64,000 nt of DNA from positions 384,001 to 448,000 of the forward strand of contig CBDBPB010000004.1 of NCBI GenBank assembly GCA_965208615.1. The letters run 5' to 3'. The translations under genes were made by a program, and so were the position numbers. The notes under the pieces were generated by a model. The model saw only the letters and a program-made list of their open reading frames with translations, made no database searches and was not told the DNA's origin. Shown in pieces: positions 12,824-57,096 of the stretch; within the stretch, counting starts at the first letter, position 1; the number at the start of each line of letters is the position of its first letter. The DNA is from Spirochaetota bacterium (lineage in GTDB: Bacteria > Spirochaetota > UBA6919 > CBDBPB01).

Positions 12824-15079
12824 ATGGATAATCAGAGTCACGCATTAAAATACCATTCTAGCGGAAGAAAAGGTAAAATAGAGGTTATATCTTCTAAGCC
12901 TTGCAGTTCACAAAGGGATTTATCCCTTGCATATACCCCTGGTGTGGCTGAGCCGTGTCTTCGTATTAAAAATAATCCCCATGATGCTTATAGCTTTACG
13001 GCAAAAGGTAATTTAGTTGCTGTAATAACCAATGGAACTGCTGTATTAGGTCTTGGTAATATTGGTGCCTTAGCCAGTAAGCCAGTTATGGAGGGAAAGG
13101 GAGTATTATTTAAAAAGTTTGCTGATATAGACGTATTTGATATTGAGCTTAATACAGAGGATCCTGATAAGTTTGTAGAGACTGTAAAGCTTTTAGAGCC
13201 AACCTTTGGAGCTGTTAACCTTGAGGATATTAAGGCTCCTGAGTGTTTTTATATAGAGGAAAGATTAAAAAAAGAAATGAACATACCTGTAATGCACGAT
13301 GATCAACATGGTACAGCTATTATAGCAAGTGCGGCTCTCTTAAACGGTCTTGAGTTAGTTAATAAAAAGATTGACGAGGTAAAAGTTGTATTTAGTGGTG
13401 CTGGTGCGGCTGGTATATCATGTGGAAGGCTATATATTAGTTTAGGAGTACGTCCTAATAATATTGTTTTTATTGACAGTTATGGAGTTTTGCATAAGGG
13501 TAGGACTAAGCATATTACCCCTTATAATGAGTCTCTTCTTATTGAGACAAAAAATAGAACTTTAACTGATGCACTAAAAGGAGCAGATGTTTTTGTGGGC
13601 TTATCCACTGGTAATATTGTCACTAAAGACATGGTTAAAGCTATGAATGATAAACCATTAATTTTTGCTATGGCAAACCCTACTCCTGAAATATCCTATG
13701 CTGATGCAAAAAAAGCAAGGCCGGATGCTATTGTAGCTACTGGTAGAAGTGATTTTCCTAATCAGGTAAATAATGTATCTGGTTTTCCTTTTATTTTTAG
13801 AGGTGCATTAGATGTAGAGTCAACTGCAATTAACGAAGAAATGAAAATTGCCGCAGTACATGCTTTAGTAAGGCTTGCTAAAGAGCCTGTTCCAGATAGT
13901 GTTTTAAGGGCATACTCTCTAAAGCATATAGAGTTTGGCGATGAATATATTATACCAAAACCATTTGATCCAAGGGCTCTTACTTATGTTGCCCCTGCTG
14001 TAGCTAAAGCGGCTATGGATAGTAATGTTGCTCAGTCTCCAATTAAAGATTTTGCCAAATATATTGAAGACTTAGAAAAGCGGCATAGTACAAGAGACTT
14101 TGTTGTTAGAAGGATTATAAACAGTCTAAAGGCTAAAAAACTTAAGTTTGTTTTTCCTGAGGGAGCTGAGCCTAAGGTTTTACGTGCAGCTAAGTTAATG
14201 TTAGAAGAAGAAATAGGTATTCCTGTCTTATTAGGTATGGAAGATCGAATTCGCAAAGAAGCAAAAAAGATTAAGATCGATCTATCCAATATGATATTAA
14301 TTGACCCTCTACAATCTGAACTAAGGGATAAATATGCGAATAGGCTTTTTGAGCTTAGACAAAGAAAAGGTGTTACGCCTAATCAGGCCTTACAGTTAAT
14401 AAAGAAAAATATTTATTTTGGAATGCTTATGCTTGAGCAAGGGGATGTCTCTAGTATAATATCAGGAGTTACAGTTCACTATCCAGATACAATAAAGCCT
14501 GCTCTTGAGATTATTAAAATCAGAGAAGGGACGTCAATAATATCCAGCTTTTTTTTAGTTATCCAAAAAGATAAGAAGTTTATTTTTGCTGATCCAACTA
14601 TAAACACTGATCCAACTGCAAAAGAGCTTGCAGAGATTGCTATAAACTGTGCAAAGGCATCAAGATTTTTTGAAATAGATCCCAAAATTGCAATGTTATC
14701 TTTTTCTAATTTTGGTAGTGTTAATCATCCTCAGGCAAAAAAGATGGCAGAGGCCGCAAAGTTAGTATCCCAGATTGATAAAACTCTCAAAGTAGATGGT
14801 GAAATGCAGCTTGATACTGCCATATCCGAAGAGCTAATCAATGAGTTCTATCCTTTTTCTAATATAAAGGGCGGGGCTAATATATTAATATTCCCTGACT
14901 TACAATCGGCAAATATTAGTTATAAGCTTATAGAGCAGTTAGGCAATGCAGAATTAGTTGGTCCACTACTTATGGGGCTAAAACAGCCTGTTAACGTTTT
15001 ACCAAGAGGTTGTACTGTTGAAAGTATAGTTAACATTGCCGCTATTACTGCTCTACAGCTTGAGCATGGTACATTTTAA
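12824..15079 (+). CDS. maeB: NADP-dependent malic enzyme with C-terminal PTA-like domain
   Basis: [71 protein letters not shown], plus a PTA domain ([20 protein letters not shown]); 751 aa. Confidence 0.97.
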
Positions 15080-18488: not shown

Positions 18489-19478
18489 GTGAATAATAGT
18501 AATCCAATTATGGAATACAATGATATGAAAAAACATACTATTCTTATTGTTGATGACTCTCAGGTCATACGTAAGGTAATAGACTATATGCTAAAAGCAC
18601 ATAATTATTCCATAATTCATGCTGTTAATGGATTAGAGGCTCTAAAGGTACTCGAAAACAAAAAGATAGACTTTATAATTACAGATATTAACATGCCAGA
18701 AATTGGCGGATTCGATCTTATATCAAGATTAAAAAAACTTGGCTTAGATTTACCATATATAATGATAACTGATTCAGATATTAATAAATATCTTGAACTA
18801 GCAATAAAATATAACGTTGGTAATATCCTTAGTAAGCCTATAGAAAAAACTGAACTCTTACATACCGTATATAAGCTTTTAAACCATAAGTCCCTTTTTG
18901 GATTAAGTAATTATTTAAACTGTCAAGCAGAGAATCTTAAAACTATATACATAGACAACTCTAAACAGTGTGATGAAAGCGTATCACAAATAGTAAATCA
19001 TGCTAAGTCTGCTGGCATGGAAAGTGAGTTTTTACCATCACTAAAATTGATTCTTAGCGAAATGGCAATTAATGCTTTATACCATCCTCATGGTTTTGAA
19101 AAAAAGAAAAAAGAAGGCGAATCTATCAAACTGAAAGAAGGTGATAAAATTGAGGTGCAGTTTGGTAAAGATGATAATAGGTTTGGCGTAAGTATAACAG
19201 ATTTTGAAGGTAAGTTAACTAAATTAGGAGTCCTACAAACCTTTAAGGAGTTTGTAGACAATAATAATAGGCTAATGAAGGCTCTTGAAAAAGGAGAAGA
19301 CCCATCCACCTTTATGAAGGATAGTGGTAGAGGATTACAAATGGCTAGAGAAATGTCTAACGAATATTATTTTAATATTAGGGTCAATAAGCTTACACAA
19401 ATTATTATTCTTATATGGATGAAAAAAATACCAATTCTCCAGAAAAGCCAATCTATAAAAATTAATGAGATAAATTAA
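18489..19478 (+). CDS. Response regulator: receiver domain plus C-terminal HATPase (RsbW-like) domain
   Basis: ILIVDDS, IITDINMP, MIT and SKP form an intact receiver. The C-terminus has SEMAINALYH (N box), SITDFEG (G1) and DSGRGLQMA (G2); no HisKA histidine box. Confidence 0.8.
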   Translation: MNNSNPIMEYNDMKKHTILIVDDSQVIRKVIDYMLKAHNYSIIHAVNGLEALKVLENKKIDFIITDINMPEIGGFDLISRLKKLGLDLPYIMITDSDINKYLELAIKYNVGNILSKPIEKTELLHTVYKLLNHKSLFGLSNYLNCQAENLKTIYIDNSKQCDESVSQIVNHAKSAGMESEFLPSLKLILSEMAINALYHPHGFEKKKKEGESIKLKEGDKIEVQFGKDDNRFGVSITDFEGKLTKLGVLQTFKEFVDNNNRLMKALEKGEDPSTFMKDSGRGLQMAREMSNEYYFNIRVNKLTQIIILIWMKKIPILQKSQSIKINEIN

Positions 19479-26560: not shown

Positions 26561-29500
26561 ATGAAAAGTATAAAAAGAGTTTTGGTTGCTAATAGAGGTG
26601 AAATAGCTATTCGTGTTTTTAGAGCCAGCATGGAGTTAGGTATTCAAACAGTTGCACTGTTTTCTCATGAGGATAGATTCGCATTACACAGATTTAAGGC
26701 AGACGAAGCATATTTAATAGGTGAAGGAAAAAGTCCTATTGCCGCGTATTTGGATATAGAAACCATTATAAACCTCGCTTTAGATAAGAATATAGACGCT
26801 ATTCACCCAGGATATGGTTTTTTATCCGAGTCCGCTGAGTTTTCAAAAGCTTGTGATGATGCTGGATTAATATTTATAGGACCAAAACCTGAGGTTATAA
26901 AAAATATGGGTGAAAAGGTATATGCTAGAAACTTGGCTATGAGTTTAGATATACCAGTAGTACCTGGAACAGAAGGCCCTATTGAAAACGATAATGATGC
27001 CATTCATTTTGCTAAAAACTATGGCTATCCTTTACTTATTAAGGCATCTATGGGTGGTGGTGGTCGTGGTATGCGTGTTGTTAGGGCAGAGAATGAGTTA
27101 ATTAATCTGCTTGAGTCTGCCAGATCAGAGGCTAAAAAGGCTTTTGGCAGTAGTGAGATTTTTATTGAAAAATATCTTGAAAATATTAGACATATTGAAA
27201 TACAGATTCTGGGGGATAACTTAGGAAATGTTGTTCACCTTTTTGAGAGAGATTGTTCTATTCAGCGTAGACATCAAAAAGTTGTAGAGGTTGCACCTTC
27301 ATCAAATCTAACCAATTCATTAAAGGAAAAGTTATATTCTGATGCAGTAAAAATAGCTAAGTCCATTAATTATACTAACGCTGGTACAGTTGAGTTTGTA
27401 GTTGACAATAATAAAAACTATTATTTTATAGAAATGAATACCAGACTCCAAGTAGAGCATACCATAACTGAAATGATAACCAATAGTGATATTGTTCATG
27501 CTCAGATCAGAATAGCAGAAGGACATCCATTAAGCCATCCCGATATAGGCATAGATAAACAAAGTTCTGTTATAAAAAGGGGATGTGCAATTCAGTGTCG
27601 TATTACTACAGAAGATCCCATGAATAACTTTATGCCTGATACAGGACGAATATTGGCATATAGAACCGCCGCAGGACACGGAATTAGACTAGATGGTGCA
27701 TGTGCTGGAGTGGGTCATAGGGTTACTCCTGATTATGATTCACTTTTAGTAAAGGTTATATCTTATGGCTCAACGTTTAAAGAGGCTATGACAAAGATGT
27801 ACAGGTCTTTAATGGAGTTTAGAATAAGGGGAGTTAAGACTAATACAGCTTTTTTAGAGAATCTTATCCAGCATCCAAAGTTTTTAAGCGGAGAGTGTAA
27901 AACTAATTTTATTGAAAGTCATCCAGAGCTTTTTGACCTTAGACCAAGAAAAAATAGGGCTAATAAGCTACTATCGTTTATTGGAAACGTAATTATAAAT
28001 GGAACAGAGGATATAAAAAACCCTATTACTGAAAAATCTTTCTTTGAGCCACCTATGCCTAAAATAGATTATAGAATGCCTATTCCAACTGGCACTAAAC
28101 AACTACTTGATAAAATTGGACCAAAAAACCTATCCAAATGGATACTTGAACAAAATCGTATTCTTATAACTGATACAACTTTTAGAGATGCTCATCAATC
28201 ATTAATAGCCACAAGAATGAGAACTTATGATATAATGAAAATTGCTAGTGCAACTGCTAAACTTGTACCAGGACTATTCTCCCATGAAATGTGGGGTGGT
28301 GCTACTTTTGATGTTTGTTATCGTTTTTTAAAGGAATCCCCATGGGATAGGCTGTCAAAGCTTAGAACTGCTATTCCTAATGTACTTTTTCAAATGTTAT
28401 TAAGATCGTCTAATGCTGTTGGTTATACTAATTATCCCGATAATATAGTAAAAGAGTTTATTAAGTTATCCTCTGAGGCTGGTGTTGACGTATTTAGAAT
28501 ATTTGATAGTCTCAACTGGACAAAGAATATGTCTATAGCTATGGATGCCGTTTTGGAAACCGGAAAGATTTGTGAAGGAGCAATATGTTATACTGGTGAT
28601 CTTTTAGACACAAATAGAGATAAGTATAATTTAAAATACTACGTAAGCATGGGAAAAGAACTTGAAAAAATGGGAGCTCATATTTTAGGAATAAAAGATA
28701 TGGCTGGTTTATGTAAGCCTCTAAGTGCATATAAGCTTATAAAGGCATTAAAGGATGAAGTTGGTATTCCAATTCATTTTCATACCCATGATACCAGTGC
28801 AAATGGCTTATCCACCCTTATGAAGGCTACTGAAGCAGGTGTTGATATTGTAGATGCCGCTATAGGACAAATGAGTGGATTAACTTCTCAGCCTAATTTA
28901 AACAGTTTAGTATTCGCACTGGCTACTAGTGATAGAAATACTGGTCTTAATAGTGATAATCTTAGTAAGCTGTCATCCTACTGGGAGATTACCAGAGAAT
29001 ATTATTATCCATTTGAGTCTGGTCTAAAAACTGGTACCGCTGATGTTTATCGTCACGAAATACCTGGTGGACAATATTCTAATTTAAGGCGTCAGGCGGC
29101 TGAGCTGGGTCTTAGCCATCATTGGGATGACCTTAAGGATATGTATGAACGAGTTAACTATGAACTTGGGGATATTGTTAAGGTTACGCCGTCTAGTAAG
29201 ATGGTTGGAGATCTTGCTATTTTAATGGTCAAGAAGAATATTAATTTTAATGATATTTATAGCTCTAATGGTAAGGGTATAGATTTTCCAAGGTCTGTTG
29301 TTGATTATTTTAAGGGTATGCTTGGTCAGCCTTATGGTGGTTTTCCTAAGAGATTACAAAAAATAGTTTTGGGTGATGATAAACCTATTACTGATCGTCC
29401 TGGTAAGTATTTGCCTCCTGCTGATTTTGATAGCACTAAAAAAGACTTAGAAGAAAAGCTAGGTCAATATATTGATAATCGTGATGTTATTAGTTATCTT

Positions 29501-29998
29501 CTTTATCCTAGCGTAGTTATCGATTATTTTAATCATATAAAAGAATATGGTGATATCTCTGTTATCCCTAGCAAAGTATTTTTTTACGGTTTAAATGTGG
29601 GAGAGGAGACTTCTATAGAAATAGAAGAAGGCAAGGTCCTTATTGTCGAATTACAGGCTATTGGTAAGCTAGAAGAAGGTTGTAGAAAAATATACTTCGA
29701 CTTAAACGGTCAACCAAGAGAAATCCTAGTACAGGATAAAGATTCTGGAGTTGAGCAAATCGGCTTTGAGAAGGCTGATTTTGATAATCCTCATCATATA
29801 GCCGCACCTATGCTTGGTAAAATTATAAGGATTAACGTTAAAGTTGGTGATGAGGTCAAAAAAGGCGAAAACCTCTTAGTTATTGAAGCTATGAAAATGG
29901 AAAATAATGTCTTAGCTAAGATTGATGGTGTGGTAGAGCGTATATCTCATCAGGAGGGCATACAGGTAGACATAGGGGATCTTTTAATGGTTATTTAG
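26561..29998 (+). CDS. pyc: Pyruvate carboxylase (single-chain BC-CT-BCCP)
   Basis: VLVANRGEIAIR, HPGYGFLSE, ERDCSIQRRHQK, DTTFRDAHQS, WGGATFD, IKDMAGL, HTHDTS, HEIPGGQYSNL, VKVTPSSK, EAMKME; AAGGAG RBS. Confidence 0.99.
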   Translation: MKSIKRVLVANRGEIAIRVFRASMELGIQTVALFSHEDRFALHRFKADEAYLIGEGKSPIAAYLDIETIINLALDKNIDAIHPGYGFLSESAEFSKACDDAGLIFIGPKPEVIKNMGEKVYARNLAMSLDIPVVPGTEGPIENDNDAIHFAKNYGYPLLIKASMGGGGRGMRVVRAENELINLLESARSEAKKAFGSSEIFIEKYLENIRHIEIQILGDNLGNVVHLFERDCSIQRRHQKVVEVAPSSNLTNSLKEKLYSDAVKIAKSINYTNAGTVEFVVDNNKNYYFIEMNTRLQVEHTITEMITNSDIVHAQIRIAEGHPLSHPDIGIDKQSSVIKRGCAIQCRITTEDPMNNFMPDTGRILAYRTAAGHGIRLDGACAGVGHRVTPDYDSLLVKVISYGSTFKEAMTKMYRSLMEFRIRGVKTNTAFLENLIQHPKFLSGECKTNFIESHPELFDLRPRKNRANKLLSFIGNVIINGTEDIKNPITEKSFFEPPMPKIDYRMPIPTGTKQLLDKIGPKNLSKWILEQNRILITDTTFRDAHQSLIATRMRTYDIMKIASATAKLVPGLFSHEMWGGATFDVCYRFLKESPWDRLSKLRTAIPNVLFQMLLRSSNAVGYTNYPDNIVKEFIKLSSEAGVDVFRIFDSLNWTKNMSIAMDAVLETGKICEGAICYTGDLLDTNRDKYNLKYYVSMGKELEKMGAHILGIKDMAGLCKPLSAYKLIKALKDEVGIPIHFHTHDTSANGLSTLMKATEAGVDIVDAAIGQMSGLTSQPNLNSLVFALATSDRNTGLNSDNLSKLSSYWEITREYYYPFESGLKTGTADVYRHEIPGGQYSNLRRQAAELGLSHHWDDLKDMYERVNYELGDIVKVTPSSKMVGDLAILMVKKNINFNDIYSSNGKGIDFPRSVVDYFKGMLGQPYGGFPKRLQKIVLGDDKPITDRPGKYLPPADFDSTKKDLEEKLGQYIDNRDVISYLLYPSVVIDYFNHIKEYGDISVIPSKVFFYGLNVGEETSIEIEEGKVLIVELQAIGKLEEGCRKIYFDLNGQPREILVQDKDSGVEQIGFEKADFDNPHHIAAPMLGKIIRINVKVGDEVKKGENLLVIEAMKMENNVLAKIDGVVERISHQEGIQVDIGDLLMVI

Positions 29999-30037: not shown

Positions 30038-30466
30038 ATGACCAGTATAGAAGAAGAAATTTTAGTTCTATGTAGAGATTCTTTATCCATAAAGAGTCGG
30101 ATTATTAAAGGTGGTGTGTGGGATTTTAGATGCTATCTTGGCGGAGGTAGAAAGTTTGACTTACACAATGATAAAGGTATATATTTGAGAACTATTTATA
30201 TGAGTCGAGATTCTAAGCGTTTTGAAAATATACCAGAGGATGTTATTGATTTAAACGAAATCTATCATATTTATAGGGTAAACAATAACTTAACATCTTG
30301 GAGCAAGGAAAAGTTTAATCCAAACTTCCTTAAGGTGATATATAACCTTAAAAATAAGGGCTTAATTCTTATTTTAAAAACTATTGATGTAATGGCTGGT
30401 TTATACCACCCTACTCCATTTACGCCAGAAGAACAAGAACCCAGATTTATTAAACTAAGTTCTTAG
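30038..30466 (+). CDS. Hypothetical protein
   Basis: 142-aa ORF 39 bp after the pyc stop, same strand; no family recognised. Confidence 0.55.
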   Translation: MTSIEEEILVLCRDSLSIKSRIIKGGVWDFRCYLGGGRKFDLHNDKGIYLRTIYMSRDSKRFENIPEDVIDLNEIYHIYRVNNNLTSWSKEKFNPNFLKVIYNLKNKGLILILKTIDVMAGLYHPTPFTPEEQEPRFIKLSS

Positions 30467-30492
30467 ATATGATTAATAAATATAAAAAGACT

Positions 30493-31845
30493 TTATTTAG
30501 ATAAAGTTGTTAGCATCTCTTTTGTATAGACATACGATTCATAAAACTTATTTAATTCATCCTCTGATAAAGTCATAGAGAACATATCTTTTACTCCATC
30601 CTTTAAGGAGACTAAAGATGGATATCCAATATAAACATCCTTAATCCTATGATCCAAGTCAAACTTATCTATATACCGTGAAATAGGCCAAATAGAAGGA
30701 TAATCTTTATATAATGACTGAATAAGACTTACTGTAACGGCTGCGATTCCTCTATAGCTTGCTCCTTGTGCCTCTATAATTTTGTATGCACTTTGTTTTA
30801 TAGATTTAAAAATATTATAATACTCATCAACGCTCATATATTTGCTAATGTGTATACCGGATACAAATGAATGACTAAAAACAGGAATTGCATTATCTCC
30901 ATGAGGTCCAATCATCTGACATGTAACATCAGAAGGGTTAATCCATAAATGTTTTGCAATTTCGCTAATCATGCGAGCATTTTCTAATATACAACCAGTA
31001 CCAAATATCCTATCTTTGTTTGTATCAGAATAATTAGCAAATGCTTGAGTCATAACATCCAAAGGATTAGTAATAACAATATACAATGCCTGGGGATTAA
31101 TACCTTTAAGGTTTTCAGCCAATGTTTTAATGATCTCGTGGTTTTTATATATAAGATCATCCCTGCTTTCGCCAACCTGTTGAGGAATACCAGTCGATAT
31201 TATAATAATATCCGTATAAAATAAATCGTGGTAGTCCACAAGCTCAATAGACACATGGGGAAAGGAAACTGCAGATTCTTTTAAATCTAATAATTTTCCT
31301 TCATCTTCATCTCTATTGCGGATAGACTTAATAAATACTCTTTCACATGTCTCAGACGCAATAATTAGTTGAGCAATCTCTAAGCCTACTCGTCCTAGTC
31401 CAATTATTCCAACGGTATTAGGGGATAATACCTTTTTATGTAGTCTAGAACGTGATATTCCATTTATAATCCATGGAATTATCTTACTATCAAAGTCTTT
31501 TAGGTCTTCTTTGTCTATGAAAGTTAAAATATTGTTAGAAAGGGATAATATTTGCTTTCTTAAATCTATTCTCGTGGATATAAATATTACAGGAAGGTCT
31601 AACTCTTTATCAATGATCTTTACCAGCTCATGACCTTGCATTTTTGGCATCTCTTCATCAAGCATAACAAGATCAATAGCCATGCCTTTAAGCCTAGCAA
31701 TATCCTTCAGCACCATTAGGGGGTCATTATAAGCTATAACATCGATATTTTCATCATTTAATCGTTTTTTATAAATCTTAGTGTATATAACACTATCATC
31801 AACTGTTAATACTCGTCCTTTAACCCTCCTTTTGTTATAGGCCAT
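30493..31845 (-). CDS. Response-regulator receiver domain fused to an L-lactate/malate dehydrogenase family domain
   Basis: N-terminal VLTVDDS, LVMLDEEMPKMQG, VIFIST, FIDK. C-terminal VGIIGLGRVG, TGIPQQVGESRDDL..N, VITNPLDVMT, GTGCILENAR, IGPHGD, GASYRGIA. One uninterrupted 450-aa ORF. Confidence 0.9.
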   Translation of the reverse strand: MAYNKRRVKGRVLTVDDSVIYTKIYKKRLNDENIDVIAYNDPLMVLKDIARLKGMAIDLVMLDEEMPKMQGHELVKIIDKELDLPVIFISTRIDLRKQILSLSNNILTFIDKEDLKDFDSKIIPWIINGISRSRLHKKVLSPNTVGIIGLGRVGLEIAQLIIASETCERVFIKSIRNRDEDEGKLLDLKESAVSFPHVSIELVDYHDLFYTDIIIISTGIPQQVGESRDDLIYKNHEIIKTLAENLKGINPQALYIVITNPLDVMTQAFANYSDTNKDRIFGTGCILENARMISEIAKHLWINPSDVTCQMIGPHGDNAIPVFSHSFVSGIHISKYMSVDEYYNIFKSIKQSAYKIIEAQGASYRGIAAVTVSLIQSLYKDYPSIWPISRYIDKFDLDHRIKDVYIGYPSLVSLKDGVKDMFSMTLSEDELNKFYESYVYTKEMLTTLSK

Positions 31846-31910
31846 AAAAAGTGTATTCCCTTATTTTTAGCTGATATTATAGTATATCAATAAGTAACCC
31901 TATAATTATG

Positions 31911-33797
31911 TTATTTTGCACTATCAACTTTTTTAGTAGAGTCTTTTATACTATCACTATCCCATTTTTCTTCTTTCTCAGACGAAGATACTCCAACATG
32001 CAAAACAGATACCTCTTGATTTAACTCATCTATCTCTCTATTAATAGAAGTTTTATCATTCATAATATAGTTATTAAGGTCCTTACCAAGAAATATAGAA
32101 TATTTATAAGTATATTTTCCTTTTGCCAATAAAAACTTACCTGTCCAGCTTCCATCATCTTGTTTGTTAAGCTCATATTCCTTAACCTGCTTACTTTCAC
32201 TAGATTTAATAATAACAGATACCTTTTTTACACTATCTTCACTATACATAGCTAAAAATTGCTTATATCCGCTAAGCTTCTTTTTATCTGGACTATCTTT
32301 AGCCGCTTCTTCATTAATAGCTTTTTTCATCTCTATTCTAACCATATTAAGCTGATCAAACTTAAAAGCAACCCTATAATAACTTATATTACCAACATTA
32401 ACAACATTACTATTAGAAATACTACTAGTAAGTTCCCTTTCTTCGATTCTTAGTTCCTCAGGATCATAAGGAAGTTTTTTCAAAACCTCTTTTTTGATAA
32501 CTTTATTATCGGCAATACTATCCCTAACTGACTTAGGTTTTCTTTTCTTATCAATTTTTTTATCTATAAGCGGCTCTGTAAACATTCCAGGTACTTCTAT
32601 TACACAAACATTTCCTGTTATATTATTTTCTCTATTAACATTTTTAGCTATACCTTTATCATCCTTTACAGGCACTTTATTTACTCTATAGCTTTCATCG
32701 TTCGAGATAACCTTATTAGAATAAGGATCTAAAACCTTTAACTCAATATTACTAGTTCCAGAAAAGGATAATATAAAATAATACTTATACACTCCAGCTG
32801 AAAGAGGAATTTTAACAGAATAAATCCCATTTTTGTCCTTAACCATTGGATGTTTTGAACTATCCCAGTTATTAAAGGATCCTACAACGCTTACCCCTTC
32901 AACCCTATCAGAATTATAAAGTTTTAGATTTTCAACCAGCATATCAAGCTTTTGAGGATCAGTCTCACCAGCAATCATGTCTTCAAGGGTTTTTCTACCT
33001 AACTCAAGGTTTAAAAACCTAAATGTAACAGAATAGTCCTTTTTTTCAAACCTAGGTTGAGCACTCTCACCAAGGAAATGATGAAGTTTATATAACCTTA
33101 ATATACCTTTTAGTCTTTTAACAAGTTTAACTAAAACAATATTCTTATCACTAAGCTCGGTTATACCAAGACCAGGAATATTAAGAATAACCTTTTTCTT
33201 TCCAAAGATGTTCAAGCTCTTATCTAAAGATGATTCATTTAATTTAATAGATTTATAATCATTTAGTATTATTTCTGTAGCAATCAAGCTATTTCTAAAC
33301 CTGATAACTTTAATAGCGTTAATATTTTGACTATCTATGGTTTTAGTTTCAGTTTCCTCAAATGGTATATAAGTTATATTGCGATCTATTATTATATTTC
33401 TTTGAATGGTAATTTGTCTTCCTTCTTTTTCATACACTACTTCTGCGTGATAGTTATAGCCATCCCATTTATATACGTTATTTACTTTATCTCCAGACTT
33501 AATACTATCCAAGTTTCCGTCAATTATTTTAGCCTTTAAATACCTTGGTATAATCTTTGATACTTTTATAATAGCTTTTGTTGAGTCATCCTTATCATGA
33601 ATATATAAAACGGTTCCCTTTTTTATGGACTGTGCCTGATTAGTTTTTATCCAGACAGTTTTATCATTTTGAGCCGTATTTTTTATAACTCCCTTAAAAA
33701 TACTTTTAGCAATAAGGCTATGGCTAAATAATATGGACAATGATATTATAATTGCTATTTTTATAGGCGTTTTCATTAAAATCCCCCTTAACTTCAT
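31911..33797 (-). CDS. Secreted protein with an N-terminal FlgT-C-like barrel and two glycogen-binding (CBM48/AMPK-beta-like) domains
   Basis: Signal peptide; VWIKTNQAQSIKKGTVLYI..AIIKVSKI..AKII..IKSGDKV; VSVVGSFNNWD..PMVKDKNGIYSVKIPLSAGVYKYYF..DP; second degenerate copy LNKQDDGSWTGKFLLAKGKYTYKY. Confidence 0.72.
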   Translation of the reverse strand: MKLRGILMKTPIKIAIIISLSILFSHSLIAKSIFKGVIKNTAQNDKTVWIKTNQAQSIKKGTVLYIHDKDDSTKAIIKVSKIIPRYLKAKIIDGNLDSIKSGDKVNNVYKWDGYNYHAEVVYEKEGRQITIQRNIIIDRNITYIPFEETETKTIDSQNINAIKVIRFRNSLIATEIILNDYKSIKLNESSLDKSLNIFGKKKVILNIPGLGITELSDKNIVLVKLVKRLKGILRLYKLHHFLGESAQPRFEKKDYSVTFRFLNLELGRKTLEDMIAGETDPQKLDMLVENLKLYNSDRVEGVSVVGSFNNWDSSKHPMVKDKNGIYSVKIPLSAGVYKYYFILSFSGTSNIELKVLDPYSNKVISNDESYRVNKVPVKDDKGIAKNVNRENNITGNVCVIEVPGMFTEPLIDKKIDKKRKPKSVRDSIADNKVIKKEVLKKLPYDPEELRIEERELTSSISNSNVVNVGNISYYRVAFKFDQLNMVRIEMKKAINEEAAKDSPDKKKLSGYKQFLAMYSEDSVKKVSVIIKSSESKQVKEYELNKQDDGSWTGKFLLAKGKYTYKYSIFLGKDLNNYIMNDKTSINREIDELNQEVSVLHVGVSSSEKEEKWDSDSIKDSTKKVDSAK

Positions 33798-33921: not shown

Positions 33922-34917
33922 TCATAGCTTTTCTGCAATCTGAACAGCATTTAATGCCGCACCTTTTAAAAGCTGATCACCTGCCGTAAATAATGCAATA
34001 CCATTTTCTGTAGAGTAGTCATAGCGTATTCTTCCCACAAGGACATCGTCTATATTAGAAGCCAATAAAGGCATAGGAAAATAGTTTTTTTCTATATCAT
34101 CAACAAGTTTTGTTCCATCGAACTCGTCAATAGCCTTTTTAACAGCCGATAATGATAAGTCATTTTCCAGTTCAAGGTTAATAGACTCCGAATGAGCACG
34201 TAACACTGGAACACGTATACAAGTAGCAGATATCTTTATCTTACTATTATTTAATATTTTCTGAACTTCATTAATCATCTTTTTTTCTTCTGTATTATAT
34301 CCATCGTCACCAATCATGGAGTCATGAGAAAAAAGATTAAAAGCAATTTGATGAGGAAAAACTTTTTTAATAATAGATTCATTATTAATATATGCTCTAG
34401 ACTGTTTTATTAATTCCTCCATGGCCTCATGTCCTGCACCACTTGCAGACTGATAGGTGGATACAATAATACGCTTTATTTTGGATAACCTATAAATAGG
34501 GAAAACAGCCATAAGCAGTATAATAGTACTACAATTCGGATTAGCAATAATACCTTTGTGATGCTTAATAACGTCTGAGTTAATCTCTGGTATAACAAGG
34601 GGAGTATTATTATCCATTCTAAATGCAGAACTATTATCTACAACAATACATCCCTCTTTAACCGCATGAGGTGCAAATTCAACACTTCTACTACCTCCAG
34701 CACTAAATAATGCAATATCCATACCCTTAAAAGAGCTAGGTTTTAATTCTTCTATAAGTATTTTCTCACCGTTAAAATTAAGCTTTTGTCCTTTTGAACG
34801 CCTTGATGCCAAAAGCTTAATGGATCTAACAGGAAAACTTCTTTTTTCTAAAACCTTTAAAATCTCATTCCCAACGGCACCACTGGCACCAACAACAGCT
34901 ACATTTTTTAAATTCAC
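33922..34917 (-). CDS. asd: Aspartate-semialdehyde dehydrogenase
   Basis: VAVVGASGAVG, ALFSAGG, VDNSSAFRM, IIANPNCST, STYQSASGAG, ATCIRVPVLRAHSE, DQLLKGAALNAVQIAE. Confidence 0.98.
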   Translation of the reverse strand: MNLKNVAVVGASGAVGNEILKVLEKRSFPVRSIKLLASRRSKGQKLNFNGEKILIEELKPSSFKGMDIALFSAGGSRSVEFAPHAVKEGCIVVDNSSAFRMDNNTPLVIPEINSDVIKHHKGIIANPNCSTIILLMAVFPIYRLSKIKRIIVSTYQSASGAGHEAMEELIKQSRAYINNESIIKKVFPHQIAFNLFSHDSMIGDDGYNTEEKKMINEVQKILNNSKIKISATCIRVPVLRAHSESINLELENDLSLSAVKKAIDEFDGTKLVDDIEKNYFPMPLLASNIDDVLVGRIRYDYSTENGIALFTAGDQLLKGAALNAVQIAEKL

Positions 34918-52545: not shown

Positions 52546-55265
52546 ATGGATGATGCACAATTTTTAGAAGAGCTTAAAAAAGACTTTTTTGATGAAGCAC
52601 AAAGCTTTATTGATATATTGGAGTCTAATATCCTAATTTTAGAAAAGGATCCAACAAATGAAGAAGCCATTAATGAAATATTTAGGGCCGGCCCATACTC
52701 TAAAAGGCGGCTCATCTACTTTAGATCTTGAATAGAATTGCCAATTTTACCCACGACATGGAAGACTTATTAGATGATGTTAGAGGAGGTAAAATACCTT
52801 TAACCCCCAATATTATAGATATACTTTTAAAATCAATAGATATAGTAAAAACACTTTTGAATGACAGCCTAGAAGGACATGAACGAGAAACAGGATATGA
52901 AAATGAAGTTATTGAGTTAATAAAGGCTGTTTTAAAAGGTGACTCCAGTAAAGAAGATAGCGTTGATGACATAGATAAGGCTAAGATTGAAGACAGTAAA
53001 CCTAAAACTAAGTTAGCATTTAATGAATATGAAAGATTTTTAATTAAGAATGCTTACTTAAAAGGATATTCTGTTTATGAGGTATATATTCGTTTAAATA
53101 GCTCTAACCCTATGAAAACGGTTAGTGGACTCCAGGTGCACTCTCAGATTAAGGAGGTGGCTGATATATTAAAAAGTTCCCCTGATATTGATGACTTAAT
53201 GAGTGATCAATTTTATGAGGAAGTATTATTTATAGTTCAGTCAACTGCTAGTCGTGATGAGGTTTATTCAAAAGTATTTTTAAGTGATGTTACTGATCTT
53301 GTTGAGGTTTCTGATTTTAGCGAAGATTTTGATATTGATAAAGATAAAGATAAAGATAAAGAGTTAGTTGACCATAAGACTGAGTGCAAGATGGTGCTAA
53401 CTAATGATGATCTTAGTACCATAAAGTCTTTTTTACAAAAAGGATCAAGGGTATTTAAGATCTTAGTTGTTTTTGATGAAACAAATCCCATGAGGGGGGT
53501 TAGCGGAGTTCTTTTTTATACTATGCTTAAAACAAAAGGAGATGTATTAAGGTCTATCCCAACTTATGACGACTTTAAAGAGGATACCTTTTATGATAAA
53601 GGGGAGTTTATTTTAGTTACTAATAGTAACATTGATGAACTAAGAGCAAAGCTATATTTAAGTGATGTAACTATTACCTTAAAATTTCAAGAGTTTGAAA
53701 AGGATATGGCTGATGAAACTATAGCCCCCGACTCTACTGAAGTAAAACCTATACCTAATGAGAAAAAGCCTGGTGATACTAAACCCTCAGTACCGTTAGA
53801 TAAGTCACTTTCTGTAGAGGCTTCTTCTATTAAACCAATTATTTCACAGTCTCCTAATAGAAAAAGTATTACAAGTGTTTTGAGAGTGGAAAGCTCTCGA
53901 ATTGATGAAATGCTAAACTTGGTTGGAGAGCTGGTTATTATAAAAGCAAGTTTTAGTCAGCTTAATGATGATAACTTAGCTATTTTTGATGATCTTATTA
54001 CCTTAAACGTACAGTATAAGGATTTTATTAGGCAGCTATTAGACGATATTGATGAGATCCTTAAGAAAACAGAAACTGATGATGATAAAGCTGGTGAATA
54101 TGTTGAGAAGTTAAAAAAAATAGAACTTCAAGATAGAATAGAACCTATAATTGGACATTTTGATAAAGTTTTCCCTAAATATCGTGAGGTACAAGAAAAA
54201 CTAAAAAGATCCACCCAAAACCTTGGCAGGATAACTGACGATCTACAAGAAAGTGTTATGAAAGTTAGGATGGTTCCTATTAATCAGATATTTAGTAGGT
54301 TTCCGCGTCTAATAAGGGATATTTCTAAAAATCTTAATAAGAATATTAATTTATCCATGTATGGTGAAGATACTGAGCTTGACAAGAGTGTTGTAGAGGA
54401 TTTAGTTGATCCTCTTATTCATATTGTAAGAAATGCAGTAGATCATGGTATTGAGCTTCCTGATGAGAGAATTAAAAAAGGTAAAGAAGAAACTGGATCT
54501 GTTGAGTTAAAAGCAGAACATGAAGGTAATACTGTTGCCATTTCTATTAAGGATGACGGTAGAGGTCTAAGTCTTTCTAAGATACGTAAAAAAGCTATAG
54601 ATAATAAGTTAATTGAGGCTAATCAAGAGTTAAGTAATGAGGAGCTTGTTAATCTTATATTCCATCCCGGTTTTTCTACTGCTACTGAGGTGACTTCTAT
54701 TTCTGGTAGAGGAGTAGGCTTGGATGTAGTAAAAAAGAAAATTGAAAATATTGGTGGTGCTATTGAGATCACTTCAGAAGAAGGAAAAGGAAGTAATTTT
54801 GGAATAAAAATACCCCTTACACTGGCTATTATTCAGGCTCTTTTAGTCCAAGTTAACAACTATATTTATTCTATACCTATAAACTCTGTTCTTGAGACTT
54901 TAAGAGTTTCTCCTGAGGATGTTAAACTATTAGAAAATACTGAAGTTATTAGAGTAAGAGAGGAAATATTATCACTGGTTCAACTGGACTATTTATTTAA
55001 ACATCGTTTAGCAGAAAGAGAAGGTGGAAGCTTTTATGTTATAGTTGTTGGGATCTCTGGTAAAAAAATGGCCTTAGGTGTAGATAGTTTATTAGGTGAG
55101 CAGGATGTAGTAATTAAACCTTTAAATAATAGATATACTAATGTAAAAGGAATTGCTGGAGCTACCATACTAGGCGATGGACAAATTAGCTTGGTACTGG
55201 ATGTTGGAGGTATATTTCATTTAGTAAGTACACAAAAAAGAAAGTTATATGATATACAAGCTTAA
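52546..55265 (+). CDS. cheA: Chemotaxis histidine kinase CheA (two +1 frameshifts in the Hpt domain)
   Basis: Removing one base at about 52690 and one at about 52730 restores INEIFRAAHTLKGGSSTLDLNRIANFTHDMED. Two P2-like domains, LRVESSRIDEMLNLVGELVI, VRMVPI, HIVRNAVDHGIE, DDGRG, GFST..SGRGVGLDVV, CheW-like P5. Confidence 0.96.
53337..53360 (+). repeat. In-frame hexamer microsatellite (GATAAA)4 encoding DKDKDKDK in the CheA linker
   Basis: gataaa repeated four times at 53337-53360. Confidence 0.85.
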
Positions 55266-55276
55266 TAGGTAAACCA

Positions 55277-56587
55277 ATGTCAGCTATATTATCAACGATT
55301 AACCAATTAGTTACTTTTCAGTTAGAGAGTGATATTCTGGGTGTTGACATTATGCATACTCAAGAGATCCTCAGCTTAGGTAACCTTAGAAAAGTTCCAA
55401 ACTCCCCTTTTTATTTTGACGGAATGCTAGATCTTAGAGGAACTGTTCTCCCTGTTATCAATTTTAAAAAACTATTTAACTTTGGAACATTTGATTTATC
55501 CCGTGATAAGGGAATTGTCATTATTAAAGATGATAATAAAAAGTGTTTTGGGGTTATTATTGATGAGATTTTACGTGTAGTTAACATTGAAAAGGCTAAA
55601 GTAAAAAAGATACCAGAAAGCTTTTCTAAATCTCTTAAGCAATATATTTCCGGAGTAGTTGAGGTAGAGAATGAATTAATCTCTATTTTGGATATTAAAG
55701 CTATTTTTCAAACTGTTGTTAAAGATCTTGGGAAAAATGCTGAAGATGATCAGGTTTTTTTAGATTTTCGTAGGGATAAATTTAAGCTACTTGATACTGA
55801 AGAAGAAAAACAAATTTATCACTTTTTAGATTCTTTTGGCGTTAAACAGAATATGGTAACTAGTATTGGAGCAAAAAATTATTTTTCAAGAATGAGAATT
55901 AATACTAATCTACCTATAGATGTTGTACTTAATGACTTTAAAACTTCTCTTGCAGAAAAAGCATATAATGTTTTGGCTTTCAAAAAAAGTATAGAATTTT
56001 TTGATTATTATAATGATTATTTTAATTTTTTAGCTATTTTAGAAAGTGTGATTTTACCTATTAAGAAAAAACAAGGATTATTAAATATAAAAATTGTTAA
56101 CCTGCAGTGTGGAAAAGGTTTTGAATGCTATTCTATTCTTTTTATCTTGAAGGCATTCATTCCTAATTTTTCTAAGTGGAACATAGAAATTATAGCTTTT
56201 AATGACGATTATAATGAGTTATCCTTTGCAAGTGAAGGACTTTATCAAGAGGAATACTTATTAAAAGTTAGCAATTGCGATTACGATAACTTTTTCTATA
56301 AAGAAAAAGAAGGGTATAAGGTTAAAGATGAGCTTAGGAAAATGATAAAATTTAGGTTTGGCACAGTAAAAAACTTTGAACCTGTAAAAAATGTTGATTT
56401 ATTTTTTTGCCGGGGAGTTTTTGCTAAATTAGGTGACAATGTTATTAGGAGAGTAGTTCTGTCTATAAAGGAATCTTTAGGTATAAATGGTATTTTACTA
56501 CTTGGCGAATTAGAAGATTTACTTTATATAAATCAACCTTTAGTAAGTAGGGAAATTAACGGAAGAAAGTTTTATTTAAATGTTTAG
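55277..56587 (+). CDS. cheW: CheW-CheR-like fusion (spirochaete CheW3 type)
   Basis: N-terminal CheW (QLVTFQL, KVPNSP..GMLDLRGTVLPVI, FGVIID). C-terminal degenerate CheR fold (IVNLQCGKGFECYSI, FASEGLY, YKVKDELRKMIKF, VDLFFCRGV, GILLLG). Confidence 0.9.
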   Translation: MSAILSTINQLVTFQLESDILGVDIMHTQEILSLGNLRKVPNSPFYFDGMLDLRGTVLPVINFKKLFNFGTFDLSRDKGIVIIKDDNKKCFGVIIDEILRVVNIEKAKVKKIPESFSKSLKQYISGVVEVENELISILDIKAIFQTVVKDLGKNAEDDQVFLDFRRDKFKLLDTEEEKQIYHFLDSFGVKQNMVTSIGAKNYFSRMRINTNLPIDVVLNDFKTSLAEKAYNVLAFKKSIEFFDYYNDYFNFLAILESVILPIKKKQGLLNIKIVNLQCGKGFECYSILFILKAFIPNFSKWNIEIIAFNDDYNELSFASEGLYQEEYLLKVSNCDYDNFFYKEKEGYKVKDELRKMIKFRFGTVKNFEPVKNVDLFFCRGVFAKLGDNVIRRVVLSIKESLGINGILLLGELEDLLYINQPLVSREINGRKFYLNV

Positions 56588-56601
56588 GATGGAGAAATGT
56601 T

Positions 56602-57072
56602 ATGAGGTTAGAATATATTAATCCATTTTTAGAAGCTTCTTGCGATATTTTAGAAGAAGTTTTAGAAACAAAAGTCAAAAAAGAAGAGCTATTCTTAAAA
56701 GATACAACTATACCTATTCTGGGTGTTGCTGTACTCATTGGCTTAACTGGGAGTGTCAGAGGACGGGTTCTTCTCGATATGGATATGGAAACTGCTTTAA
56801 AAATATCGTCCAAGATGAATAATGAAAAGATTAGTAATTTTGATAATCTTAGTAAGGCTACTATTAGTGAGTTAGCTAATATGATTGGAGGTAGAGCTAT
56901 TACTAGTTTACATAATGAAGGATTTTCTTTTCAGGTATCCCCGCCCAGTATTTTTACTGGAACAAATATGGAGATAACTTCACATTCGTTAGAGGCATTT
57001 ATTGTTCCCTTAAGTACGCCTTTCGGAAAAATAGAGGTAAATGTTGCTGTCAAAGAGAGAGAAGATTTTTAA
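56602..57072 (+). CDS. cheX: Chemotaxis phosphatase CheX
   Basis: MRLEYINPF, GVAVLIGLTGSVRGRV, ISELANMIGG (E-x2-N), VSPPSIFTG, PFGKIEVNVA. Confidence 0.96.
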   Translation: MRLEYINPFLEASCDILEEVLETKVKKEELFLKDTTIPILGVAVLIGLTGSVRGRVLLDMDMETALKISSKMNNEKISNFDNLSKATISELANMIGGRAITSLHNEGFSFQVSPPSIFTGTNMEITSHSLEAFIVPLSTPFGKIEVNVAVKEREDF

Positions 57073-57096
57073 AATAAAGCTATAGGAGAAGAGTAT

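Follow-up and report, generated by a model that had tools for sequence, protein, structure and literature searches.

A response-regulator receiver fused to an LDH/MDH-family dehydrogenase in a Spirochaetota bacterium

Locus and domain architecture

We analysed a 64,000-nucleotide stretch of DNA from a Spirochaetota bacterium (the window), in which one minus-strand gene encodes a receiver (REC) domain joined to a dehydrogenase of the LDH/MDH family. The first-pass annotation of this DNA had described a single uninterrupted open reading frame of 450 aa, and the ORF list bears this out; the open frame reaches just five codons above the ATG (455 aa in total). The fusion protein consists of a receiver (residues 10–134) followed, after a short conserved linker, by a complete dehydrogenase of the LDH/MDH family (residues 144–450). 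The features of the gene and its surroundings are as follows.

30493–31845, minus strand: whole gene of the REC-LDH/MDH-family fusion; 450-aa ORF with an ATG start, stop codon at 30493–30495
31444–31818, minus strand: receiver domain, residues 10–134 (PF00072, AF2 model, PDB alignments to MtrA, CheB and 4q7e)
31795–31800, minus strand: acidic pair D16-D17 of the receiver, aligned to the DD of MtrA and CheB; present in 3/3 fusions
31657–31659, minus strand: D63, predicted phospho-acceptor Asp (in LDEEMP), opposite the acceptor Asp of MtrA, ARR1, 4q7e and CheB; 3/3 fusions
31510–31578, minus strand: switch residues S90, F109 and K112, with S90 opposite a Thr of MtrA and K112 opposite a Lys of 4q7e; 3/3 fusions
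31417–31443, minus strand: linker LHKKVLSPN, residues 135–143 (pLDDT <50 at 136–140)
30991–31416, minus strand: NAD(P)-binding domain Ldh_1_N, residues 144–285, with GLGRVG (PF00056; glycine columns)
31324–31329, minus strand: K173-S174, a Ser where the NAD-ribose Asp53 would stand, preceded by a Lys (MAFFT and profile-HMM columns)
31162–31182, minus strand: active-site loop from Q222 (position 102) to R228 (Arg109) (column counts, 183 homologues)
30496–30990, minus strand: catalytic/substrate domain Ldh_1_C, residues 286–450 (PF02866; block pLDDT 93–98; Foldseek match 1a5z)
30973–30984, minus strand: E288 (place of Asp168) and R291 (Arg171) (column counts; E288 in 3/3 fusions)
30901–30903, minus strand: H315, predicted catalytic His (His195), His in 182/183 homologues
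26561–29998, plus strand: pyc, convergent with the fusion gene, with one ORF between
30038–30466, plus strand: 142-aa ORF, converging on the fusion gene
12824–15079: malic-enzyme/PTA (MaeB-type) gene, in the same window

All three Pfam domains were matched above their cut-offs: Response_reg (PF00072) at residues 12–113 with 44.4 bits (cut-off 30.2), Ldh_1_N (PF00056) at residues 145–282 with 94.5 bits (cut-off 27) and Ldh_1_C (PF02866) at residues 287–437 with 57.4 bits (cut-off 22.6). The AF2 model of the protein has a pLDDT of 92.1. The same three domains occur in two orthologues found in other assemblies, namely P0002 (454 aa, 69% identical) and P0003 (451 aa, 68% identical), whose PF00072 matches score 51.2 and 50.1 bits, respectively. 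Identities to the two orthologues are 73% and 72% for the REC core, 71% and 68% for Ldh_N and 65% and 65% for Ldh_C; receiver conservation is at least equal to enzyme conservation across the fusions, by statistics that rest on three sequences, all from uncultured organisms. Over the segment comprising α5 and the linker (residues 113–143), identity to the two orthologues is 74% and 68%, and 19 of the 31 residues are invariant. The joining of a receiver to an LDH/MDH-type enzyme in one gene suggests that a signalling kinase may act directly on a metabolic enzyme.

The surroundings had been described correctly, with pyc, the 142-aa ORF between and the maeB gene all in place. The nearness of pyc and maeB does not hold up as functional evidence, the neighbourhood not being conserved in the nearest relatives examined: the asd neighbourhoods of a genome of the same order (G002) and one of the same class (G004) contain unrelated genes.

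The receiver domain

Signature residues of the receiver (D16, D17, D63, S90, F109 and K112) were placed by alignment to MtrA, CheB, ARR1 and 4q7e, the switch residues being assigned by CheY numbering. All six are invariant in the three fusions, and every key site named in the first-pass annotation (D16-D17, D63, S90 and K112) was recovered when codon positions were checked. The residue after the conserved K112 is Glu; the usual Pro is missing. In the predicted structure the receiver has a (βα)5 fold, with five strands (residues 10–15, 34–39, 59–63, 86–89 and 106–110), helices between them and a last helix at 123–134, all modelled with block pLDDT values of 82–95.

Comparison with other receivers points slightly towards chemotaxis proteins. 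Among receiver-type NCBIfam models, CheB matches best (PRK00742, 40.1 bits; next 30.8), and both CheB receivers of the genome, together with the CheY of the window, are among the five best of 28 in-genome receivers. Of the best 40 REC-only matches in relatives, 13 fall within CheB genes; the top seven do not. The origin of the receiver may therefore lean slightly, by a few bits, to CheB/CheY, which we treat as a lead only. Leads only also came from the ESM Atlas, where the search gave clusters of stand-alone receivers and nothing else, at a score of 0.83 (below the 0.9 mark).

The dehydrogenase domain

Residues of the dehydrogenase were assigned from a MAFFT alignment in which the fusions were compared with 183 unfused homologues, using standard LDH residue numbering (102, 109, 168, 171, 195, the FBP-site positions and so on). 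A profile of the 183 homologues aligns the domain end to end (279 bits, nodes 4–306 of 308), and the best Foldseek match of the AF2 model is 1a5z (E 3.4e-29, target-normalised TM 0.92). The fusion enzyme retains 21 of 24 near-invariant columns (at least 90% in the unfused homologues). The glycines of GxGxxG are kept (G149, G151 and G154, matching 182–183 of the 183 homologues), as are R228 in the Arg109 column and R291 in the Arg171 column (Arg in 183/183 for both), H315 in the His195 column (182/183) and, in LDH numbering, N140 and D143. Residues for hydride transfer and for binding the substrate carboxylate are kept in a predicted complete dehydrogenase fold, and retention of Arg109, Arg171, His195 and Asn140 with the 21 near-invariant columns suggests that catalysis is retained.

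There are marked departures. The Asp168 column, that of the partner of the catalytic His, holds a Glu (E288) in all three fusions (Asp in 181/183 homologues, Glu in 2/183), a substitution that could reduce or alter catalysis. Pro takes the place of Glu194, and Arg that of Tyr248, where it occurs in 0/183 homologues. The full LDH/MDH fold that had been described for this region stands, with its motifs (GLGRVG, R228 in SRDDL, TNPLD, R291 in ENAR and H315 in GPHGD); the enzyme is not, however, a standard LDH, since it scores below every NCBIfam LDH/MDH cut-off, has Glu at Asp168, has lost the NAD-ribose Asp and sits on a very long branch.

Position 102 is Gln (Q222) in 3/3 fusions, the homologues having Gln in 98/183 and Arg in 74/183. 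Because of this Gln, we infer that the enzyme reduces a non-dicarboxylic 2-ketoacid and not oxaloacetate. The fusion is the only Ldh_1 family member found in the genome with Gln at position 102, a residue that marks it as putatively LDH-type; no member of the lactate permease family was found there, which counts against the reading favoured below.

The coenzyme site

The enzyme probably uses NADPH, since a Lys-Ser pair replaces the Asp to which the adenosine ribose of NAD binds. In the MAFFT alignment the NAD-ribose Asp column holds S174, where homologues have Asp in 167/183 and Ser in 6/183, and the profile-HMM alignment agrees. Pairwise phmmer shifts the register by one, placing K173 opposite the Asp; there is no acidic residue there either way. 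An acidic residue is likewise missing at this place from 15 of the 183 homologues without a receiver, in most of which an Arg or Lys follows. P0003 lacks the extra Arg that follows the Lys-Ser pair, and hence NADPH use is argued mainly from loss of the Asp and from Lys173.

The same exchange has been made in the laboratory. Table 1 of PMC5817062 lists, among mutants of Bacillus stearothermophilus LDH engineered from NAD to NADP, I51K:D52S (Holmberg 1999) along with D53S (Feeney 1990). The natural K173-S174 fill the two columns that I51K:D52S alters, a hydrophobic residue and then an Asp where strand B ends; unlike the fusion, the engineered enzymes are unfused laboratory mutants of reduced efficiency. 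A natural Lys-Ser in place of the NAD-ribose Asp would offer a ready test of coenzyme-engineering rules.

The fructose-1,6-bisphosphate site

The LDH/MDH family is a textbook case of how allostery evolves and, to our knowledge, all its known regulation is through small molecules (fructose-1,6-bisphosphate (FBP), substrate, pH) and oligomeric state. The predicted fusion enzyme has no FBP site. The place of Arg173 is taken by Ile (I293) in 3/3 fusions, where homologues have Arg (115/183) or Lys (33/183), and that of His188 by T308, which is Asp or Thr across the three fusions (His in 63/183 homologues).

The FBP-activated bacterial L-LDHs (1ldn, 2zqy/2zqz and 9dq7) share the fold of the fusion enzyme (target-normalised TM 0.89–0.92, identity 30–34%) along with Gln102, Arg109, Asn140, Arg171 and His195. 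The fusion differs from them in Asp168 to Glu, Asp53 to Ser, Glu194 to Pro, Tyr248 to Arg, Arg173 to Ile and His188 to Thr, and in carrying an additional 143 residues of receiver and linker at its N terminus. According to PMC10583557, the dimer-tetramer state and catalytic efficiency of LDHs are under the control of N-terminal segments, and in one LDH such extensions govern the tetramer state and Km.

A candidate phosphorylation-controlled reductase

On balance, and with modest confidence, we favour a reading of the protein as an orphan response regulator whose output would be a non-malate 2-ketoacid reductase, probably NADPH-using, in which phosphorylation would replace sugar-phosphate allostery. 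A histidine kinase encoded elsewhere would phosphorylate Asp63 of the receiver; the fused dehydrogenase would reduce pyruvate or another non-dicarboxylic 2-ketoacid; and the phosphorylated receiver would alter its activity. The most likely route would be a shift between dimer and tetramer, or the relief of a steric block on the Rossmann domain at its N-terminal end. Phosphorylation would substitute for FBP allostery, the residues for binding FBP being absent from the fusion, and such a substitution fits the sequence.

The genome is rich in two-component proteins, with 29 matches to REC and 22 to HATPase_c above cut-off. Several of its kinase-type ORFs have no receiver nearby (C9:54130, C7:305783, C7:414572, C8:113555 and C6:138789, as contig and position), and it has two genes of the CheA type, at 52728–55265 of the window and near position 232180 of contig C7. 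Acetyl phosphate was set aside as the donor. The acetate kinase family gave no match in this 99.4%-complete genome, which makes the route doubtful, and the sole PTA domain seen lies inside the MaeB-type gene.

A more specific version, which we advance only tentatively, would have a sensor kinase, perhaps one of the chemotaxis CheA proteins, switch an NADPH-linked pyruvate or 2-ketoacid reductase, phosphorylation of the fused receiver driving the enzyme between a weak dimer and an active tetramer. CheA is considered as the kinase because the receiver leans slightly to receivers of the CheB/CheY type.

Alternative readings of the receiver and its output

The enzyme could be active and its receiver indifferent to phosphorylation, either because it serves permanently for oligomerization or docking or because it no longer has a kinase, with no two-component switching at all. 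We judge this unlikely. The five residues of the signature, and the aromatic switch with them, are kept in 3/3 fusions at about 70% overall identity, which would be unexpected of a receiver whose phosphorylation chemistry lay idle. No kinase gene adjoins the fusion gene, as this alternative would have it, but it is common for orphan response regulators to have their kinases encoded far away. Also in its favour are the modest Pfam match of 44.4 bits, which spans profile positions 1–100 of 111, the Glu in place of Pro after Lys112, and the isolation of the receiver: the most similar in-genome receiver reaches 31.9 bits and is no close paralogue, and a search with the REC region found no relatives other than the three fusions.

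Signalling could also run in reverse: the dehydrogenase-like domain would mainly sense a 2-ketoacid or NAD(P)H and would tune the uptake or loss of phosphate by the receiver, making the protein a metabolite-tuned sink or relay, for example for CheA. The CheB scores, the CheB genes among matches in relatives and the in-genome ranking of the CheB and CheY receivers would all suit such a role, as would the change of Asp168 to Glu, the loss of the NAD-ribose Asp and the very long branch. The gaps between receiver scores are nevertheless only a few bits and none of the top seven matches in relatives is a CheB; there is no adjacent CheA gene, the che cluster of the window lying ~21 kb from the fusion gene; and a domain that had become a sensor is hard to square with the retention of Arg109, Arg171, His195, Asn140 and 21 of 24 near-invariant columns. 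We hold this alternative to be quite unlikely.

Subfamily placement bears on a third alternative, in which the output is malate dehydrogenase and a receiver-controlled MDH feeds the oxaloacetate-malate node of pyc and maeB. Profile scores do not separate the subfamilies: the equivalog LDH model TIGR01771 gives 219 bits (cut-off 303.55) and the MDH model PRK06223 nearly as many, 216.8 bits (cut-off 283), with TIGR01763, also an MDH model, at 151.8 bits (cut-off 351.85). In trees the three fusions group together as a separate clade (SH-aLRT 100) whose stem measures 2.55–3.05 substitutions per site and has no firm attachment point, and an approximately unbiased (AU) test rejects neither a grouping with LDHs (p 0.90) nor one with MDHs (p 0.83). 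Likelihood is slightly better with the fusions held in the LDH clade (+19.9) than in the MDH clade (+14.7). The fusions resemble the LDH-like MDHs (PRK06223, TIGR01763) in fold and in the near-equal profile score, which falls short of the cut-off. Unlike them, all three fusions have Gln at position 102, where every row of the 27-row MDH clade has Arg; moreover, the other family member of the genome is itself an Arg102 MDH nested in the MDH clade. Although pyc is a convergent neighbour and maeB lies in the window, this neighbourhood is not conserved among relatives, and we consider an MDH output very improbable.

At 17 lineage-specific signature positions, no unfused homologue has more than four of the residues found in the fusions. 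Given the sub-cut-off NCBIfam scores and the very long branch, the substrate may differ greatly from those of LDHs and MDHs.

Relation to known receiver-enzyme fusions

CheB (REC-methylesterase), PleD and WspR (REC-GGDEF) and RpfG (REC-HD-GYP) share with the fusion an N-terminal receiver with the full signature, a short linker and a C-terminal catalytic domain, and the CheB structure 1a2o ranks with the closest solved structures to its receiver. Switching is by occlusion of the active site in CheB and by dimerization in PleD and WspR. Unlike these signalling enzymes, the output of the fusion is predicted to be a 2-hydroxyacid dehydrogenase that uses NAD(P), is of a type found in central metabolism and is an obligate oligomer, and the fusion gene has no adjacent cognate kinase gene.

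Receivers joined to standard metabolic enzymes are a recognised category of narrow phyletic distribution (PMC5847659, section 14), and the fusion resembles those in the Galperin censuses reported there in having a receiver on an ordinary enzyme and a narrow distribution. Section 14 of that article lists no output of the LDH/MDH family. The class is already known, and the LDH-family output is the new element. The first-pass annotation knew of no characterised REC-LDH fusion and our literature search likewise found no paper on one; bacterial census tables (refs 5 and 6 of PMC5847659) may list one.

If the more specific, tentative version is right, in which a sensor kinase switches the enzyme between dimer and tetramer, no enzyme of the LDH/MDH superfamily would have been known before to be under two-component control, and the protein would show sugar-phosphate allostery swapped in nature for a covalent phospho-switch. 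Control by phosphorylation would also place a central redox enzyme among the few metabolic enzymes directly under two-component control. A phospho-receiver on the N terminus, the segment known to govern tetramer formation, would make the switch open to study by a new route that is simple genetically.

Rarity and integrity of the fusion

The REC-LDH fusion is very rare: the architecture was found in three sequences in a collection of ~15 billion proteins, and in none of 400 other genomes of the same phylum. Searches for related loci with a single protein and over-specific peptide patterns confirmed nothing. With the fusion alignment, genome contigs yielded one locus, a plain Glaciecola MDH, and metagenome contigs none, and the conserved peptide YPSIWPISRYI, as a degenerate DNA pattern, matched 0 metagenome contigs. 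A word-based search for longer proteins (789–2250 aa) with the fusion found none, which is weak evidence given the method. Of the sequencing runs searched, one DNA-type run carries the stretch, two other runs of the same study have next to none of its words, and no RNA run was found.

The junction between the domains, which had been flagged for checking, is continuous in P0002, in P0003 and in a contig assembled by a second assembler (Logan) from run X1. The latter spans 30400–32000 unbroken with 0 differences; X1 is probably the source sample, making this an independent assembly and not an independent sample. Because two orthologues share the architecture and the second contig crosses the join without difference, we take the join to be real and not an artefact of assembly. 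That a chimeric join, or a stop codon lost between neighbouring genes in a low-coverage assembly, produced the fusion is scarcely credible: indel errors do occur, with several split genes in the assembly and a Logan k-mer depth of just 6.55 for the contig spanning the gene, but such errors disrupt frames and would not make a frame of 450 codons in DNA of 31% G+C, and the linker is conserved in both orthologues.

Gene, domains and surroundings

The REC-LDH gene is a single ORF (30493..31845, minus strand, 450 aa; ORF listing of the window), with just five more open codons above its ATG (open frame, 455 aa) and the G+C content of the flanking DNA (0.31–0.33). Domains were called with Pfam at curated cut-offs, and all three lie above them:

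Residues 12-113, minus-strand gene, Response_reg (44.4 bits)
Residues 145-282, minus-strand gene, Ldh_1_N (94.5 bits)
Residues 287-437, minus-strand gene, Ldh_1_C (57.4 bits)

Two proteins from public collections share this domain order: P0002 (454 aa, 69% identical to the window protein) and P0003 (451 aa, 68%). All inferences about the REC-LDH protein rest on these three sequences from uncultured organisms. The surrounding genes are as follows:

12824-15079, MaeB-type malic enzyme with C-terminal PTA domain (Pfam)
26561-29998, plus, pyc (ORF and Pfam annotation of the window)
30038-30466, plus, 142-aa ORF for which no annotation was possible, converging on the REC-LDH gene
31911-33797, minus, 628-aa protein with CBM48 module, upstream of the REC-LDH gene across a 65-bp gap
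33922-34917, minus, asd, next upstream after the CBM48-protein gene

Every receiver and dehydrogenase motif named in the first-pass annotation is present in the translation (codons checked), and its description of the surroundings, with pyc, one converging ORF between and maeB in the window, is correct. In the two relatives compared gene by gene, G002 (same order) and G004 (same class), the genes around asd are entirely different, so the proximity of pyc and maeB has no value as support. The REC-LDH and CBM48 genes may be co-transcribed, since they lie on one strand 65 bp apart; promoter- and terminator-like sites around the REC-LDH gene show no excess over shuffled sequence. The 628-aa neighbour has a hydrophobic signal-like N terminus and a CBM48/AMPK-type glycogen-binding module at residues 300-360.

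The receiver domain

Receiver residues were placed by alignment to the solved receivers MtrA 3nhz, ARR1, 4q7e and CheB 1a2o, and we take the names of the signature positions to follow CheY numbering:

D16-D17, acidic pair
D63, predicted phospho-acceptor
S90, Thr/Ser position
F109, aromatic switch position
K112, conserved Lys

All six residues are identical across the three fusions; the residue after K112 is Glu, the usual Pro being missing. The AlphaFold2 model of the receiver has five strands and five helices, with block pLDDT of 82–95. Identity to the two orthologues is 73% and 72% in the receiver core, against 71%/68% and 65%/65% in the enzyme domains. The receiver core is thus conserved as much as the enzyme domains, the level expected of a receiver in use.

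The receiver leans slightly to the chemotaxis type; with score margins of a few bits, we treat this as no more than a lead. The top NCBIfam receiver-type match is CheB (40.1 bits; runner-up 30.8), and 13 of the best 40 receiver-only matches in relatives sit in CheB genes (cross-read by hand). None of the 28 in-genome receivers compared is a close paralogue, the best scoring 31.9 bits, and the top five include both CheB receivers and the window's CheY.

Catalytic, coenzyme and effector sites of the dehydrogenase

The dehydrogenase domain was aligned to 183 unfused homologues of 285-345 aa, from 197 fetched, the others falling outside this length range. Positions 102, 109, 140, 143, 168, 171 and 195 are presumably equivalent to those of LDH numbering. 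Of the 24 columns with conservation of 90% or more, the window protein matches 21, and GxGxxG, Arg109 (R228), Asn140, Asp143, Arg171 (R291) and His195 (H315) are all kept. A profile built from the unfused homologues only scores 279 bits, with nodes 4-306 of 308 aligned to the window protein, and the predicted model superposes on T. maritima LDH with a target-normalised TM of 0.92. The place of Asp168, partner of the catalytic His, is taken by Glu in all three fusions versus 2 of the 183 homologues, a conservative change that could still affect catalysis. The domain is probably still a working reductase of the LDH type.

In this family the adenosine ribose of NAD is bound by an Asp that closes strand B. 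This residue is Asp in 167/183 unfused homologues and S174 in the window protein, also by profile alignment, with K173 filling the hydrophobic position before it; one pairwise alignment is off by one residue here, and the acidic residue is absent in either register. Fifteen of the 183 homologues also lack it, mostly with Arg or Lys next. Among mutants engineered from NAD to NADP use, the review PMC5817062 (Table 1) includes I51K.D52S and D53S, both in B. stearothermophilus LDH. We infer with moderate confidence that the REC-LDH protein uses NADPH or both coenzymes. Both positions that make up the FBP site of allosteric bacterial LDHs are changed in the fusions, to Ile and Thr/Asp; with these site residues missing, the classical FBP activator site is absent by alignment, and the protein is not an FBP-type allosteric LDH.

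A putative phospho-regulated enzyme

Common modes of receiver action are dimerisation upon phosphorylation and the lifting of an occlusion from the output domain. In the REC-LDH protein a linker of nine conserved residues connects an intact, conserved receiver to the first strand of an LDH-family enzyme whose catalytic set is nearly complete and whose FBP site is missing. Phosphorylation at D63 would alter how the enzyme assembles, or its conformation, and this change would gate a 2-ketoacid reductase, phosphorylation standing in place of FBP allostery. We lean, if only modestly, towards such a phospho-regulated enzyme. According to PMC10583557, N-terminal extensions of LDHs stabilise the tetramer, and removal of one gave a less efficient dimer (Km 30 mM versus 10 mM) whose response to FBP was lost; the words fusion, fused and receiver do not occur in this large LDH survey.

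An active enzyme whose receiver is no longer switched is unlikely, given that the signature residues of the receiver are kept in all three fusions. Reverse signalling, in which the enzyme-like domain is a sensor and the receiver a sink or relay, is a little less likely again, most catalytic residues of the dehydrogenase being retained.

The REC-LDH protein is one of the response regulators with enzymatic output and, more narrowly, belongs with the receivers fused to standard metabolic enzymes described by Galperin and co-workers, which are recurrent and phyletically narrow (PMC5847659, section 14). A full-text literature search, whose reach excluded the two bacterial censuses and all supplements, returned no paper on a receiver–LDH/MDH fusion. 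What is probably new is the LDH/MDH-family output; receiver–metabolic enzyme fusions are known as a category. The REC-LDH fusion would be an attractive natural experiment on how LDHs are allosterically controlled and how they choose their coenzyme.

Affinity of the dehydrogenase domain

All three fusions have Gln at position 102. Among the 183 homologues this position is Gln in 98 and Arg in 74, a split that follows LDH-type versus MDH-type clades, and the sole other family member in the genome, on contig C7, is an Arg102 MDH nested in the MDH clade. NCBIfam scores fall under every equivalog and subfamily cut-off (LDH, 219 versus 303.55; MDH, 216.8 versus 283), which by this measure places the domain outside the curated L-LDH and MDH equivalog families. 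The three fusions form their own clade on a stem of 2.55–3.05 substitutions per site (median tip, 0.72–1.06). The quick free tree search was poor, since both constrained trees scored better, and by AU test a grouping with the LDH clade (p 0.90) is not rejected, and the same holds for the MDH clade (p 0.83). Although the latter value would allow an MDH as output domain, Gln102 in every fusion and the presence of an Arg102 MDH elsewhere in the genome make that reading very unlikely. At sixteen positions all three fusions share a residue that departs from a family consensus of 60% or more. Of 17 signature positions (the sixteen without L262, plus K173 and Q222), no unfused homologue shares more than four. 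By scores, branch length and residues, the domain is far from a standard LDH or MDH.

Reality and rarity of the fusion

The unbroken junction reported in the first-pass annotation is upheld by the two orthologues and by a second assembly. The junction segment (residues 113-143) is 74% and 68% identical to the orthologues, with 19 of 31 residues invariant. A Logan contig from the sole sequencing run found to contain the stretch spans 30400-32000 in one piece with 0 differences; this run is probably the source sample, which makes this a second assembly and not a second sample. An assembly artefact is extremely improbable: several genes elsewhere in the same assembly are split, but indel errors disrupt frames and do not create them, and P0002 and P0003 have the same fused architecture.

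From the collections searched, the fusion is real and very rare. We scanned 1.84 billion cluster representatives exhaustively with HMMER. Of the 5059 matches (E up to 0.001), the best 150 include just one that covers both domains, P0003 (query 7-447); in the 9 others of at least 350 aa among these 150, Pfam finds no receiver. A word-based search across 5.8 billion clusters gave 48 matches, of which just the window protein, P0002 and P0003 are fused; searching with the receiver region alone returned the same three fusions and nothing else. No match spanned both domains in 40 relatives or in a sample of 400 further genomes of the phylum; 28 of these 400 had unfused matches (E up to 1e-35), all starting from query residue 125 or beyond. 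Scans of species-representative genomes and JGI metagenomes gave no further fusions, and no solved structure found by structure search spans both parts. The second-best match of the exhaustive search, P0049 (public collection, 720 aa), carries a pair of EF hands at its N terminus and then two LDH/MDH units in tandem, a different, possibly calcium-linked elaboration of the family.

Genome context

The genome (2.46 Mb, 99.4%-complete) contains several broken genes. At 1754-2699 (minus), beside GDP-mannose 4,6-dehydratase, a single NAD-dependent epimerase profile (PF01370) is spread over two overlapping ORFs, with positions 1-166 in 2217-2699 and 169-230 in 1754-2290, which looks like a frameshifted or split gene. 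Frame 0 of the Arg102 MDH (G000:C7:117250-118283) stops early (...AKLGTKRYRRYNRAKPF, then stop) and its normal C terminus (SGIEDIIELSLSDSETEAMK...) goes on in another frame; the cause is an indel of one base close to the 3' end or else an assembly error. A 2-Hacid_dh_C match at G000:C3:133124-133580 is in two pieces with TAA inside, and a CheB at G000:C6:225713-226817 is divided between frames of 143 aa (receiver) and 260 aa (methylesterase). These breaks suggest indel errors or gene decay in a low-depth assembly.

Acetyl phosphate is doubtful as phosphodonor, because the genome has no match to the acetate kinase family, despite the MaeB-type gene with PTA domain. It has no match to an LctP-type lactate permease; it has two POR_N oxidoreductase genes and several genes of the D-2-hydroxyacid dehydrogenase type.

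The window's Pfam annotation places no histidine kinase gene next to the REC-LDH gene. Across the genome, 29 receiver and 22 HATPase_c matches exceed the cut-off, and for several kinase-type ORFs the nearest receiver lies more than 5 kb away (by coordinates). A response regulator at 18489-19478 (plus, 329 aa) has a receiver of 88 bits and about 200 C-terminal residues without a Pfam match (E up to 1e-5). The window also has flagellar-rod genes, which together with CheX fit a spirochaete-like bacterium. Further signalling genes in the window are:

52728-57528, che cluster (CheA, CheW-CheR fusion, CheX, CheY), 21 kb from the REC-LDH gene
62069-63559, REC-PAS-kinase gene (Pfam)

Within the cheA/cheW-cheR/cheX/cheY cluster, CheW and then a CheR methyltransferase domain share one 436-aa ORF (55277-56587, plus).
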